From: a virus
Taxonomy: Duplodnaviria > Heunggongvirae > Uroviricota > Caudoviricetes
Virus record (IMG/VR): IMGVR_UViG_2778261457_000003
Span: 2,217-66,216 of that record
Reading direction: 5' to 3' (one strand)
Length of the DNA: 64,000 nucleotides
Both the position numbers and the translations under genes were made by a program. Of the stretch, positions 26,080 through 28,768 are shown piece by piece. The first letter of the stretch is position 1. Every line of letters begins with the position of its first letter. Under the pieces are notes generated by a model. That model was not told where the DNA came from. It did not search any database and was given only the letters and a program-made list of their open reading frames with translations.

Positions 26080-26268
26080 GTGGTAGTGCACTTTAACATC
26101 GGGAGAATAATCGTGTCATCCAAGGTTAATTATGAGTCGCTGGCATCGGTCATGCCGCGTAATGAACAGGAAACAGATGCTGTAGTGGACCCTGTAATCG
26201 CTGAAATGAATGCTCGCCTGGAGGCTGAATTTGCAGCTGAGAATGAACATACCACCCAGGGCGACTAG
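26080..26268 (+). CDS. small hypothetical acidic protein
   Basis: 62-aa ORF, no motif. Confidence 0.3.
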   Translation: MVVHFNIGRIIVSSKVNYESLASVMPRNEQETDAVVDPVIAEMNARLEAEFAAENEHTTQGD

Positions 26269-26872
26269 GACTGTTTTTTGTGTCGGTAGCGGTCCGTCAC
26301 TCACTCGTGAGGACTGTGCTGCTATAGAAAAAACTGGCTGTTCAATCATCGCGGTTAACAATTCCTGGCAGATGTTCGATGACATTTATGCCTTATACGC
26401 CGGTGATTTGTCATGGTGGAAGCAATACGGATCCACCATACCGGGAGGGAGATTCCGCAAAGTGACAGCCAACCTGGCGGCGGCGAAATCATTTTCGTTG
26501 GAGTACAGGCGATATTGTGGACCGGCGGAAGGGGTAAATAGCGGCGCGCAGGCTATCAGTCTGGCTGCTGAATCAGGGGCTGAAGTAGTGGTATTAGTCG
26601 GCTATGACTGTTCTCTGCAAAACGGCCTTCATTGGCATGGCGCGCACCCTCAAGCACTACGGAATCCAACGCAGGTGTCTATTTCAAAATGGCAACAGCA
26701 GTTCCTGGATACCCGCAAAAAACACGCAGATTTACATATTTTGAATGCAAGTAGGAGCAGTGCAATTCAATGTTTCCCAAGAATAAATTTAGAGGCAGTG
26801 ATCGCGTTATTATCGTCGGCAGTGGCCCAAGCGCCGCAAACTTTGTTGCGCCGCGCGGAGTGCCGATTATAG
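26243..26872 (+). CDS. MptE/DUF115-like Rossmann-fold protein, paralog 1
   Basis: VFCVGSGPSL ... IIAVNN ... GAQAISLAAESGAEVVVLVGYD pattern; start taken at internal Met (MNIPPRATR). Confidence 0.5.
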   Translation: MNIPPRATRTVFCVGSGPSLTREDCAAIEKTGCSIIAVNNSWQMFDDIYALYAGDLSWWKQYGSTIPGGRFRKVTANLAAAKSFSLEYRRYCGPAEGVNSGAQAISLAAESGAEVVVLVGYDCSLQNGLHWHGAHPQALRNPTQVSISKWQQQFLDTRKKHADLHILNASRSSAIQCFPRINLEAVIALLSSAVAQAPQTLLRRAECRL

Positions 26873-27396
26873 CGGTCAATGGGGCCATCGACTGGCTTAA
26901 CCGCGCTTCTTATTTTTTCACCCTTGATCCATCCCCAGACAATATGCGGCGCGTTGGTCGTGGCCGCCGTCGCCGTGGTGTTTGTTATTGCATGGCACTA
27001 CCCGATGTTAAAGAACGTGAAGTCAGAGATGGCGTTCTGTGCTTCCGTCGTGTGGCTGAACGCGGCATGGAGCCAAAAAATACGAATTCTCCCGAGTGGT
27101 GGGCGTGGCGCTGGTCCGCACATTTCGGCCTTTGCGAAGATGAGAATGAAATTGCCAGCGGCAATAGTGCATATGGTGCTCTGAACCTGGCTTTCCATAT
27201 CGGATTCAAACATGTAGCTCTGGTGGGCGTTGACGCTACGCAAGAACTACGCGTTCACTCCGGCGGCACGCCAAAAAATCTAAGTCACCTGCCTTTGTTA
27301 TTCCAGTCTGCGCGTGAACAGATTGACGTTGTTTCATGCGGGAAAATGGGAGGTATTCCGCAGATGACTCTTAAAGAATGGCTGAAGAATACATGA
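26770..27396 (+). CDS. MptE/DUF115-like Rossmann-fold protein, paralog 2
   Basis: VIIVGSGPS ... IIAVNG ... [23 protein letters not shown], colinear with paralog 1; 5' end overlaps paralog 1 by about 100 nt in another frame. Confidence 0.5.
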
Positions 27397-28070
27397 TGGC
27401 ACCCACAATTTATCACCGTATCGACGGTACCAAATACAGGAATGTCTGGGTTGTTGGTGATCTGCATGGTTGCTACACCAGACTGATGTCCGAACTCCAT
27501 CGTGTGGATTTTGACCCGGCGCAGGATTTACTGATATCGGTCGGCGACCTTATCGATCGCGGTACTGAAAATGTCGAATGTCTGGAACTATTGCAGATGC
27601 CCTGGTTCAGGGCAGTGATGGGGAACCATGAGCGGCTGATGATTGATGCGTTAAGTCCAGATGGCAACGTGAATAACTGGCTAATGAATGGCGGACAATG
27701 GTTCTTCATGCTGGACACTGATCAGGAAATATTAGCCTGGGCGCTGGTGGAGCTGGTAAAGCGTCTGCCCTATATCATTGAGTTGAACACCGGGCAAGAA
27801 ACTATCGTTATAGCCCATGCCGACTATCCGGATAATGAATACCAATTCGGTAAGGAGGTGCCGCTTTTCAACGTTGTCTGGGCGCGCGAGCGTATCAGTG
27901 ATTCGATGGATGATATTGGTGGCGAAATTTCGGGCGCAGATCGTTTTATCTTTGGTCACACTCCGGTGAAAAGCCCGAAGACATTCTGGAATCAGCAGTA
28001 TATCGACACTGGTGCCGTATTTTGCGGAAACCTGACATTGATGAAAGTGAAAGGTGATGGTGCAGCATGA
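27378..28070 (+). CDS. Ser/Thr protein phosphatase, lambda-PPase/calcineurin-like metallophosphatase
   Basis: canonical motifs GDLHG, GDLIDRG, GNHE present. Confidence 0.8.
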
Positions 28071-28768
28071 AGATTGCTTTAGTTCTTCGCTCTGGTGGTG
28101 ACTATAACGCTTCCGATGTGCAGTGGCTGGTTAATCAACTGCCAAAAGACTATGAAATTATTTGCCTGACAGACCTGAAGTGTTTACATGTACCTGGCGT
28201 CAAAGTTATCCCATTGATCAACCAGTGGCAAAAGTGCCGTGGCTGGTGGGCGAAAATCGAGTTGTTCCGACCGGATATAACCGATGATCTGTTCTATCTG
28301 GATTTGGACACGGTTATTGCCGGTGATATACGCCCAATCCTTGAGAATCCACCAACCAGCTTCACCATGCTTAGGGATTTTTACCATCCACAATATCGTG
28401 GTAGCGGTGCCCTGTGGATACCAAATAGTGTTAAAGCGCATATCTGGAGTTCATTCTGGCAAGATCCGGAAGGTTGGATTTCTCGTTGTGTCACTACTGA
28501 GTGCTGGGGTGACCAGGGGTTCTTACGAAAGGTTATGGGCGATGATACACCAGCATTTCAGGATCTGTATCCAGGATGGTTTGTAAGTTACAAGGCCGAT
28601 GTTGTGGAACCTGGTTCAAAATATGCGAGCGCGCGTTACTCCAGGGGGAATGGGGCATTACCAAAAGACTGCCGAATAATCTTTTTCCACGGCAAACCGC
28701 GACCTCGCGAAGTGTCAGAGGATTGGCTTCCCCTTATCAGCTCATTTTTTGAGCGAGAATCAGAATAA
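28067..28768 (+). CDS. hypothetical protein
   Basis: 233-aa ORF, ATGA overlap with phosphatase gene; YLDLDTVI segment could be a DxD-type motif but is unconvincing alone. Confidence 0.45.

Follow-up and report, generated by a model that had tools for sequence, protein, structure and literature searches.

Glycosylation of phage virions has been described in mycobacteriophages. [quoted passage not shown] The glycosylation of mycobacteriophage virions has been reported to weaken the neutralising-antibody response. In phage lambda, the gene of the NinI phosphatase belongs to the nin region, and glycosyltransferase genes are not near it. In P1, in contrast, the gene of Ppp, which is 64% identical to NinI (GenBank note), occupies a variable slot between pmgP and pmgQ. 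P1 is among the most used phages of bacterial genetics, and these genes are still labelled 'putative morphogenetic function'.

The window, which is the whole stretch of 64,000 nucleotides that was analysed, is bacteriophage P1 DNA with 99.8–100% identity. The region under study is the pmgN-pmgO-pmgP-ppp-pmgQ operon of P1, which is under C1 repression and consists of known genes that were already loosely annotated (Table 1). Every element placed here by a sequence-only reading of the DNA was found at its position. That these are named P1 genes was missed in that reading. The annotation of promoters and operators was carried over by coordinates from GenBank AF234172 (window = L001 + 22199). OpmgRa, OpmgRb and PpmgR form the boundary at which the operon ends and the pmgR-pmgS unit starts. 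An additional late promoter farther upstream may read into the operon. The three genes pmgO, pmgP and pmgQ are referred to below as the cassette. It is positioned in P1 between the tail/baseplate genes and pmgR-pmgS, away from the capsid gene, and therefore its embedding among structural genes is only loose in this phage.

Table 1. Features of the P1 operon and its boundary, in window coordinates.
Feature	Coordinates	Strand	Basis
PpmgN, predicted sigma-70 promoter	26014-26040	+	GenBank AF234172
Oppp/Op83, C1 repressor operator controlling the operon	26053-26069	-	GenBank AF234172
pmgN, first operon gene, 51 aa	26113-26268	+	phrog_2350 match (function not assigned there)
pmgO, putative DUF115/Maf-type (sialyltransferase-like) glycosyltransferase, 220 aa	26210-26872	+	fold models, motifs
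pmgP, second, diverged DUF115/Maf-type paralog, 208 aa	26770-27396	+	fold models, motifs
pmgO/pmgP overlap, 103 nt	26770-26872	+	frames 0 and -1
ppp, lambda-type (NinI/PPP family) Ser/Thr metallophosphatase	27378-28070	+	Pfam Metallophos, phrog_246
pmgQ, predicted GT8-type retaining GT-A glycosyltransferase, 233 aa	28067-28768	+	phrog_1962, GT8 profile matches
OpmgRa and OpmgRb (C1 operators) with PpmgR promoter	28770-28835 (L001 6571-6636)		GenBank

The two tandem proteins had been likened to the MptE/DUF115 fold from their motifs, and this likeness was borne out by confident AlphaFold models of both PmgO and PmgP. The best match of the models is the Maf flagellin glycosyltransferase; MptE of archaea and CstI, a sialyltransferase of Campylobacter, come next. 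The alignment of PmgO and PmgP covers 164 and 160 residues with Maf, compared with 126 and 136 residues with MptE. As modelled, PmgO and PmgP are paralogs that share the DUF115/Maf sialyltransferase-like fold and have diverged from each other. They were modelled one by one because the MAFFT alignment for an O-P fusion mixed both paralog families. The sole Pfam match is PF01973 (MptE-like), with 23.1 bits for PmgO and 20.9 bits for PmgP, both below the gathering cut-off of 34.6 bits. The fusion homolog P0051 reaches 44.6 bits, above the cut-off, and many other homologs have precomputed PF01973 matches. Single-sequence searches of the PDB gave no significant match, and the PmgP family profile matched no PDB sequence. 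The best E values of the PmgO family profile against GT42 enzymes were non-significant (0.28–0.93), and those enzymes were not matched by the PmgP profile. A structural search of BFVD returned many uncharacterised DUF115 proteins of uncultured phages, none with a functional annotation. The PmgO family is large. Clustered at 50% identity, it has 479 clusters with E ≤1e-30, a number that rises to 3770 with E ≤1e-10, and its present labels include 'sialyltransferase', 'norphogenetic protein' and even 'phosphohydrolase'. The DUF115 fold includes pyrophosphokinases too (MptE, TPK), which is counted against a glycosyl reading.

The colinear paralogy of the two proteins proved to be real but remote. 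The family profiles aligned with a probability of 98% in hhalign (E 2.5e-13), colinearly over 161 columns with 24% identity, and the BLASTP match of PmgO with PmgP is limited to the N-terminal 36 aa (E 0.003). GSGPS, IIAVN and GxD are invariant or near-invariant columns in both families (38 PmgO and 83 PmgP homologs). The DUF115 order, with an N-terminal G-x-G-P-S loop and then a central G-x-D strand, is kept and aligned with the CstII motifs. Invariant histidines are also present (H141 and H143 in PmgO, H173 in PmgP), and H146 of PmgO is nearly invariant. The true start of pmgO is probably the internal ATG at 26243. This start suits the homologs better because they begin 4–15 aa ahead of the GSGPS motif, and residues 1–14 of the PmgO model have a pLDDT below 50. 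The second gene had been said to start about 100 nt inside the first in another frame, and pmgP does share 103 nt with pmgO, read in the -1 frame. An AGGAG is located 12 nt 5' of the pmgP start. The overlap encodes the poorly conserved C-terminal tail of PmgO and the N-terminus of PmgP. Adjacent O and P genes overlap by 10–118 nt in most loci, with P mostly in the -1 frame. A natural O-P fusion (P0051, 376 aa) exists, and tandem O-O fusions also occur. A programmed -1 frameshift, which would give P1 an O-P fusion mimicking P0051, was considered and rejected. The canonical slippery heptamer A_AAT_TTA, in frame with pmgO at 26785-26791, is treated as chance since most of the other O/P pairs that overlap are without such heptamers. 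Among these pairs are those of L133 and L134, two P1-like loci with 70% identity. Its chance occurrence in a 34-codon overlap was estimated as about 5%.

The last gene of the operon had been read as a 233-aa protein with a possible DxD segment. The analysis identified it as a GT8-type DxD glycosyltransferase, in which D79-x-D81 is invariant in 105 homologs. PmgQ belongs to phrog_1962 (E 2.2e-127), and no match was found among the Pfam and NCBIfam models, GT8 included. Against the PDB, its family profile matched the Skp1 alpha-galactosyltransferase (6mw5, E 1.7e-7), glycogenins (1.4e-6 to 6e-5) and GlyE (5gvv, 6.7e-5). In these alignments, the DxD motifs of the Skp1 galactosyltransferase and of glycogenin coincide with D79 and D81. 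These best PDB matches are protein-acting GT8 enzymes, and they outscore the LPS enzymes WaaJ (19.8 bits) and WaaO. The junction of ppp and pmgQ is an ATGA overlap.

The lambda-type phosphatase was recovered as Ppp, with 59.3 bits against Pfam Metallophos (cut-off 21.5) and E 5e-113 against phrog_246. Its translation shows the GDLHG, GDLIDRG and GNHE motifs, and its 272 bits against NCBIfam PRK11439 are below the equivalog cut-off of 326 bits. With the start as annotated, ppp and pmgP have 19 nt in common; if translation began at the in-frame ATG at 27393 instead, this junction would be an ATGA overlap as well. The neighbours also agree with what had been claimed. They are the DksA-like PmgL (phrog_54, E 1.6e-12), the VRR-NUC protein PmgM (21.3 bits against Pfam VRR-NUC, slightly under the cut-off of 23.8) and the HAD/PNKP-phosphatase Pap (47 bits). 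The proposal that all of these make up one modification module stood only in part, as O, P and Q co-occur but Ppp, VRR-NUC, DksA-like and HAD proteins do not travel along. The VRR-NUC and DksA-like genes come before the promoter and C1 operator that belong to the operon itself, Pap is past a second operator pair, and none of these three genes was found beside the cassette in other loci. The comparison covered 18 species-representative genomes and, outside P1, about 30 viral loci; O, P and Q alone co-occur there, and ppp was seen in P1-like elements only, sitting between P and Q. The distant P1-like element L132 has pmgL-M-O-P-Q-R-S without ppp and without pmgN, and pmgN is confined to the P1 lineage. 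The genes ppp and pmgN are additions of the P1 lineage, outside the conserved cassette.

O, P and Q were found together in 13 of the 18 species-representative loci, which range from Enterobacteriaceae to Brevundimonas and Sinomicrobium, in most of the roughly 30 non-P1 viral loci, and in the jumbo phage XacN1 and phage EP_H11. The viral-contig scan was started from a distant sequence, so that it was not dominated by the 80 near-identical P1 copies. The carriers span Proteobacteria, Bacteroidota and jumbo phages, and the named hosts are Gram-negative without exception. The result indicates that pmgO-pmgP-pmgQ is a conserved, horizontally mobile cassette of Gram-negative phages and prophages. 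Its conservation and capsid linkage appear to be unreported so far. The cassettes of many relatives contain methyltransferases of class I, FkbM and TylF types; P1 has none, with ppp in that slot. Other accessory genes are Sulfotransfer_2, GT2, a Nucleotid_trans-like gene and one with a weak GT1/GT4-like match. Fusions with a TylF-type methyltransferase were seen for PmgO and also for PmgQ. There is also a PmgO-Big_1/Big_13 fusion with an adjoining GT2 gene and another inverse autotransporter near. In five related chromosomal loci of Pseudescherichia/Enterobacteriaceae, genes of Big_1 proteins are interspersed among O, P and Q. This island has a 1177-aa inverse autotransporter (IAT_beta and seven Big_1 domains) and three more Big_1 proteins. 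In XacN1, a 1088-aa PKD-domain protein follows the cassette. No Big_1 or Ig-like domain was detectable within the P1 window.

The position of the cassette is recurrent. In about 16 of the roughly 30 non-P1 loci, it is directly 3' of the major capsid gene (HK97-type, some with a gp6-like connector between), and these capsid-adjacent loci include three near-identical pairs and are not wholly independent. In phage D3, a PmgO homolog is right behind the major head gene. A methyltransferase accompanies the PmgO homolog behind the head genes in the Pseudomonas phages D3 and PAJU2, and Citrobacter phage phiNP is a further carrier with capsid adjacency. The adjacent capsid proteins share a median identity of 39% (minimum 15%) against 53% for PmgP, and the two are uncorrelated (Spearman -0.15). 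Therefore, the cassette has moved among capsid lineages with its position retained. Elsewhere the cassette is likewise beside genes of late function, among them those for lysis, the portal and the large terminase. In two loci it adjoins ribonucleotide reductase genes rather than structural ones, and DNA-metabolism genes are near it in P1, L102 and XacN1.

The best reading, which we hold tentatively, is that of a late-expressed cassette glycosylating virion proteins. Late in infection, the cassette would build a short glycan. The two DUF115 enzymes probably act as a pair, in favour of which the natural O-P fusion and the tandem O-O fusions are counted. By analogy with Maf and CstI/II, each of them would take a CMP-activated ulosonic acid as its donor, and CMP-Kdo would be the sole such donor common to all hosts seen. 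PmgQ would attach a hexose in alpha linkage, with a UDP-sugar as its donor. The glycan of relatives may be further O-methylated, sulfated or lengthened by the extra glycosyltransferases. A protein would be the likeliest acceptor, with those of the virion (head) foremost. A protein acceptor is favoured because Maf, the nearest of the solved folds, is an O-glycosyltransferase that acts on flagellin and PmgQ is nearest to protein-acting GT8 enzymes. The Big_1 adhesin island with O, P and Q and the PmgO-Big_1/Big_13 fusion also favour it. The accessory transferase genes inside the cassettes and their fusions speak for glycan chemistry, and the recurrent place behind the capsid gene or beside other late genes speaks for the virion. 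Against the virion reading count the different position in P1, the two ribonucleotide reductase loci and the lack of a plaquing phenotype in the deletion mutants. In-frame deletions of pmgO, pmgP, pmgQ and ppp left plaquing normal and antirestriction unchanged (PMC9024508), and the cassette is dispensable for plaques on laboratory E. coli. No report of a glycan on any P1 virion protein or O-P-Q carrier was found in the literature. The 2026 cryo-EM study of P1, which describes the head-associated DarA and Hdf, has none of the searched words on glycosylation or extra density in its text. A more specific proposal is rather improbable. In this proposal, Gram-negative phages including P1 would decorate their own virion proteins through an unrecognised widespread cassette of two DUF115 enzymes and one GT8 enzyme, to which methyl- or sulfotransferases may be added, and the glycan would contain an ulosonic acid, Kdo, from the host CMP-Kdo pool.

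The acceptor could instead be LPS or another envelope glycan, which we consider unlikely. The LPS core is the receptor of P1. PmgQ would then act like the GT8 outer-core glucosyltransferases WaaJ/WaaO and the core would be altered or truncated in lytic growth, so that progeny would not be lost on debris or infected cells. This explanation gains from WaaZ of E. coli, which is in the same superfamily (28.5 bits against Pfam MptE-like, E 1.5e-6) and matches the PmgP N-terminus by BLASTP (E 1e-4), and from faint WaaZ_KDO_III matches of P0051. It gains as well from the membership of PmgQ in GT8, the family of WaaJ and WaaO, and from hosts that are Gram-negative throughout. In Frirdich 2003, the outer core is reported to be truncated upon waaZ overexpression, which is counted on the same side. 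The basic PmgO (pI 9.3) and PmgP (pI 9.5) resemble WaaZ (9.25); the isoelectric point was rejected as a membrane or LPS indicator, being non-discriminating. However, PmgO and PmgP fail the WaaZ models (no NCBIfam match at E ≤0.01, hhalign probabilities of 12–43%), and PmgQ matches protein-acting GT8 enzymes better than WaaJ/WaaO. The recurrent post-capsid position across unrelated capsid lineages would also be left unexplained. In addition, the cassette is away from the integrase-proximal, lysogen-expressed sites typical of serotype conversion and is C1-repressed in P1, and LPS made late could probably replace only a small share of the surface LPS. A protein outside the virion, such as an Ig-like (Big_1) adhesin or other surface protein encoded by the host or a prophage, or another host protein during takeover, is an improbable target. 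The adhesin loci of Pseudescherichia/Enterobacteriaceae, the PmgO-Big_1/Big_13 fusion beside GT2 and near an inverse autotransporter, and the PKD-domain protein of XacN1 point to it. On the other hand, the adhesin link is limited to one enterobacterial lineage and one insertion-sequence-rich contig, most carriers are phages with adhesin-free surroundings, and the P1 window is without a detectable Big_1 domain.

The chemistry may also be other than glycosyl transfer. PmgO and PmgP could work as pyrophosphokinases in the manner of MptE/TPK, their substrate being a small molecule or nucleotide and the product perhaps being reversed or edited by Ppp. This is very improbable. MptE-like is the only Pfam match and a phosphatase gene is between P and Q in P1, but Maf aligns better and over more residues than MptE, and Ppp is missing beyond close P1 relatives. 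Moreover, PmgO and PmgP have a GT8 enzyme as their constant partner, and the partners that come and go are sugar methyltransferases, a sulfotransferase and more glycosyltransferases. Hypermodification of DNA, in which phage bases are glycosylated against restriction, is hardly to be expected. GT8-like GT-A enzymes related to WaaJ/WaaO and DNA-linked Kdo have been reported in phage 5hmC glycosylation clusters, whose pathways require a cytosine methyltransferase and a TET-like dioxygenase (bioRxiv 10.1101/2023.12.21.572611). DNA-metabolism genes are near the cassette in P1, L102 and XacN1, but no cytosine methyltransferase, TET-like dioxygenase or other hydroxymethyl-base enzyme was present among the annotated cassette neighbours examined. 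The methyltransferases of the cassettes are small-molecule or sugar types (FkbM, TylF) rather than DNA methyltransferases. P1 DNA is cut and cloned normally, which also counts against this explanation. The sequence-only reading had suggested glycosylation or nucleotide modification of DNA, virion or host envelope. Glycosylation is now the best-supported chemistry, and its DNA branch is weakened by the antirestriction that the deletions left unaffected (PMC9024508).

If the cassette glycosylates virions, phage virion glycosylation would be extended from mycobacteriophages to Gram-negative phages and the large PmgO family would gain a function. This would be relevant to phage therapy, the immune recognition of phages and P1-based delivery vectors. 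With Kdo-decorated virions, if true, a virion glycosylation system would be on record for the first time beyond actinobacteriophages, and so would Kdo linked to protein for the first time at all. If LPS is remodelled instead, this would be a new way in which a phage modifies the receptor that it uses, in lytic growth. Either outcome is directly testable because P1 deletion mutants already exist (PMC9024508).

Maf (DUF115/PF01973, PDB 5MU5) has about 600 aa with extra acceptor-binding domains, whereas PmgO and PmgP are predicted to be bare catalytic domains of about 200 aa with 16–17% identity to it. CstI and CstII (CAZy GT42; PDB 2P56, 1RO7) match in fold, but the sequence-profile E values are only 0.3–0.9 (PmgO profile). 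E. coli K-12 is not known to make CMP-sialic acid, and therefore the label 'sialyltransferase' is unlikely to be literally correct. WaaZ, which transfers KdoIII in the inner core of LPS (TIGR04437, PF27901), shares the superfamily and motif order with PmgO and PmgP. It is a presumed user of CMP-Kdo, which is present in every cassette host. PmgO and PmgP were rejected as WaaZ orthologs. They do not match the WaaZ model, and P0051 scores 20.3 bits against a cut-off of 200 bits, compared with 479 for WaaZ itself. The GT8 enzymes (glycogenin, Skp1 alpha-galactosyltransferase 6MW5, GlyE 5GVV, WaaJ/WaaO) are matched by the PmgQ profile with E 1.7e-7 to 7e-5 and an aligned DxD, and PmgQ is shorter with a family of its own. 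Compared with the mycobacteriophage cassettes, that of P1 is without a methyltransferase and without capsid adjacency. Those cassettes belong to phages of actinobacterial hosts. As described in PMC11600133, however, the mycobacteriophage cassettes are like the O-P-Q cassettes of HK97-like prophages in size, in the accessory methyltransferase and in their position among structural genes. A virion-protein acceptor would make O-P-Q the Gram-negative counterpart of mycobacteriophage virion glycosylation.

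The 5.8 kb around the operon matched both bacteriophage P1 (AF234172, AF234173) and hundreds of P1-like plasmids at 99.8-100% identity. All of the open reading frames described in the sequence-only reading were present, and their names were taken from the P1 record, where every pmg gene is labelled 'putative morphogenetic function'. The P7 names for these genes are hdmA-hdmD, 'head morphogenesis'. According to the P1 record, a predicted sigma-70 promoter (PpmgN) and a C1 operator (Oppp) lie 5' of pmgN, another C1 operator pair lies 3' of pmgQ, and a late promoter (LPpmgL) is located upstream of pmgL. 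Since the promoter and Oppp precede pmgN and the operator pair follows pmgQ, the region is a single repressor-controlled operon. The genes pmgL (DksA-like), pmgM (VRR-NUC) and pap (HAD/PNKP phosphatase) are outside this promoter-to-operator unit.

Positions of the operon genes in the window and of the features described at other loci
Feature	Locus	Position	Description
pmgN	window	26113-26268	
pmgO	window	26210-26872	DUF115/Maf-type
pmgP	window	26770-27396	DUF115/Maf-type
ppp	window	27378-28070	lambda-type phosphatase
pmgQ	window	28067-28768	GT8-type
A_AAT_TTA	window	26785-26791	slippery heptamer
ORF373, ORF372	L105, phage XacN1	5630-10217	
427-aa protein	L123	4721-6001	Phage_HCP domain
orf6.5, orf7	L190, phage D3	5637-6355	PmgO homolog, single ORF 5708-6352
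ORF010	L191, phage PAJU2	3474-4043	PmgO homolog
adhesin island	L091	1-16591	PmgO, PmgP, PmgQ homologs
P0308	L189	2029-3699	PmgO domain with Ig-like domains

The start of pmgP lies 103 nt within pmgO in the -1 frame and is preceded by AGGAG, so the second paralog does begin inside the first. The ppp/pmgQ junction is an ATGA overlap. The annotated starts of pmgO (26210) and ppp (27378) look too far upstream. For pmgO, the internal ATG at 26243 proposed in the sequence-only reading is favoured over the GenBank start because it fits the homologs better and the N-terminus of the model has low confidence. The annotated ppp start gives a 19-nt overlap with pmgP, and an in-frame ATG at 27393 would overlap the pmgP stop codon by ATGA. 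The pmgO frame contains a canonical -1 slippery heptamer, A_AAT_TTA, 15 nt past the pmgP start. A shift at this site would give a PmgO-PmgP fusion resembling the natural fusion P0051. Programmed frameshifting was nevertheless set aside: the heptamer is absent from most other overlapping O/P pairs and is therefore probably due to chance.

PmgO and PmgP were matched by BLASTP at the N-terminus only (E 0.003). Alignment of their family profiles with hhalign gave a probability of 98% and an E of 2.5e-13 over 161 colinear columns, which bore out their colinear paralogy. In each family the motif columns are invariant or nearly so. Pfam gave MptE-like matches only, below threshold. The closest structure matches were the Maf flagellin glycosyltransferase 5mu5 (14.2 and 12.7), the archaeal MptE pyrophosphokinase 8sd5 (11.6 and 11.8) and the Campylobacter CstI sialyltransferase 2p56 (11.1 and 10.6), followed by thiamine pyrophosphokinases and GT29 sialyltransferases. 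The MptE/DUF115-like fold had thus been assigned rightly. The PmgQ family profile matched GT8 structures at significant E-values, namely Skp1 alpha-galactosyltransferase (E 1.7e-7), glycogenins (~1e-6) and GlyE (6.7e-5), and its D79-x-D81 is invariant. Ppp is a typical lambda-type PPP phosphatase. In PHROGs, PmgO belongs to phrog_4603 ('alpha-2,3-sialyltransferase'), PmgP to phrog_2111 (unknown function) and PmgQ to phrog_1962 ('glycosyltransferase'). At E <=1e-30 the PmgO family comprises 479 clusters (50% identity), a number that rises to 3770 at E <=1e-10. Database names of the homologs look unreliable. The typo 'Norphogenetic protein' is widely propagated, and Salmonella PmgQ homologs are named 'phosphohydrolase', probably by transfer from the adjacent ppp. 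The called start of the Citrobacter rodentium PmgP homolog P0161 (176 aa) cuts off the GSGPS motif.

When one genome per GTDB species was scanned with the PmgP profile, 18 loci were returned. Local HMMs detected all three of PmgO, PmgP and PmgQ in 13 of them, with carriers including Zhongshania, Commensalibacter, Brevundimonas and Sinomicrobium (Bacteroidota). About 24 further non-P1 loci with the trio came from a second scan of viral contigs, biased away from P1, and coliphage EP_H11 and Xanthomonas jumbo phage XacN1 carry it too. Ppp is confined to P1 and its close relatives, and neither it nor pmgN occurs in a distant P1-like element that carries pmgL-M-O-P-Q-R-S (26-58% identity). Therefore, the modification module of the sequence-only reading holds for O, P and Q but not for ppp, and is narrower than proposed. 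In other phages the slot between P and Q is filled by class I, FkbM-type or TylF-type methyltransferases, a Sulfotransfer_2 enzyme, or genes with a weak GT1/GT4-like match or a Nucleotid_trans-like product. Such sugar-tailoring enzymes and extra glycosyltransferases argue for glycan assembly and against a pyrophosphokinase role. Besides the O-P fusion P0051, tandem O-O, O with a TylF-type methyltransferase and a TylF-type methyltransferase with Q were found as fusions. In XacN1, ORF373 is a TylF-type O-methyltransferase fused to a PmgQ-like domain; it lies just downstream of ribonucleotide reductase genes and is followed directly by the gene for a 1088-aa PKD-domain protein. Within another cassette (L123), a 427-aa protein has a Phage_HCP (head-completion) domain in its first 105 residues, and its remaining ~320 residues gave no family match.

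The cassette recurs in late-gene contexts. In about 16 of the ~30 non-P1 loci it follows the major capsid gene, in the HK97-type prophage order of small terminase, large terminase, portal, ClpP protease, major capsid protein, cassette and head-completion genes. Examples are Pseudomonas (L106), Gilvimarinus (L107), Martelella (L109, L110), Zhongshania (L096) and many uncultured phages. The adjacent capsid proteins have a median identity of 39% (minimum 15%) and PmgP one of 53%, with no correlation between the two sets of pairwise values (Spearman -0.15, p 0.14). This indicates that the cassette moved among different head modules while its position was kept. Elsewhere it lies after the portal gene (L116, L119), after the large terminase (L097) or within or beside lysis cassettes (L003, L004, L100, L189); two loci adjoining ribonucleotide reductase are the exception. 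No cassette was seen at integrase-proximal sites typical of lysogenic-conversion genes among the loci examined. Pseudomonas phage D3 has a PmgO homolog directly 3' of the major head gene and a methyltransferase a few genes downstream. Its record shows two genes there, orf6.5 and orf7, and a single ORF matches PmgO profile positions 5-181, so D3 probably encodes one full-length homolog. The 12 kb of D3 examined showed neither a PmgP nor a PmgQ homolog. PAJU2 is arranged similarly, and its ORF010 (41% identity) was labelled 'structural protein' by the depositors. Should this label derive from an analysis of virion proteins, the enzyme may travel in the particle.

Some neighbours and fusions hint at a protein acceptor. 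Besides the PKD-domain protein encoded after the XacN1 cassette, these are homologs that occur beside adhesin-type genes. In five related Pseudescherichia/Enterobacteriaceae chromosomal loci (L090-L094), O, P and Q are scattered among Big_1 proteins; in L091 they lie on different strands, interleaved with the adhesin-type genes. The island encodes a 1177-aa inverse autotransporter (IAT_beta and seven Big_1 domains), a 999-aa Big_1 and RCC1-repeat protein and two further Big_1 proteins. P0308 (556 aa) is a PmgO domain fused to Big_1 and Big_13 Ig-like domains, encoded between holin and lysozyme genes with a GT2 gene adjoining and insertion sequences and another inverse autotransporter near. No Big_1 domain was detectable in the P1 window.

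The literature search found no published function for these genes. Each of pmgN, pmgO, pmgP, pmgQ, ppp and pap has been deleted in frame, and the 24 non-essential P1 knockouts showed no plaquing defect and unchanged antirestriction (PMC9024508). By CRISPRi, pmgO, pmgP, ppp and pmgQ were non-essential and pmgN was scored essential, with an efficiency of plating of 1.4e-2 (PMC10695390). The pmgN score is at odds with its viable in-frame deletion and with the non-essentiality of all downstream operon genes. Neither glycosylation nor extra density is mentioned in a 2026 cryo-EM paper on DarA and Hdf of P1.

The analysis established the gene identities, folds, paralogy, cassette and synteny. Concerning chemistry and acceptor, we infer that the cassette would be expressed late and would glycosylate virion (head) proteins. 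The DUF115 enzymes probably use a CMP-ulosonic acid; the named hosts are all Gram-negative and no nonulosonic-acid pathway genes were seen in the carriers, which makes CMP-Kdo the parsimonious guess for the donor. The main rival is remodelling of the LPS core, as WaaZ is a distant relative and GT8 includes WaaJ and WaaO. However, the P1 proteins fail WaaZ models, and this rival would not account for the capsid linkage. For glycosylation of DNA, GT8-like enzymes and Kdo adducts have been reported (bioRxiv 10.1101/2023.12.21.572611), but the required base-hydroxymethylation genes were not seen among the cassette neighbours examined and the antirestriction data give it no support.

The original observation was correct overall. 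The genes themselves and loose glycosyltransferase labels in databases were already known; what appears to be new is the conservation of O, P and Q as a triad, the tailoring genes that accompany it and its recurrent position after the capsid gene, which together make virion glycosylation a testable hypothesis for P1 genes that lacked an assigned function. Four points favour virion-protein glycosylation: the location next to the capsid gene, Maf as a precedent, GT8 relatives of PmgQ that act on proteins, and a parallel in cluster O mycobacteriophages. Those phages have three glycosyltransferase genes in tandem plus one for an O-methyltransferase, and the enzymes modify proteins of the capsid and tail tube (Freeman 2023, cited in PMC11600133); the O-P-Q cassette, with its putative virion acceptor, may be likened to that system.
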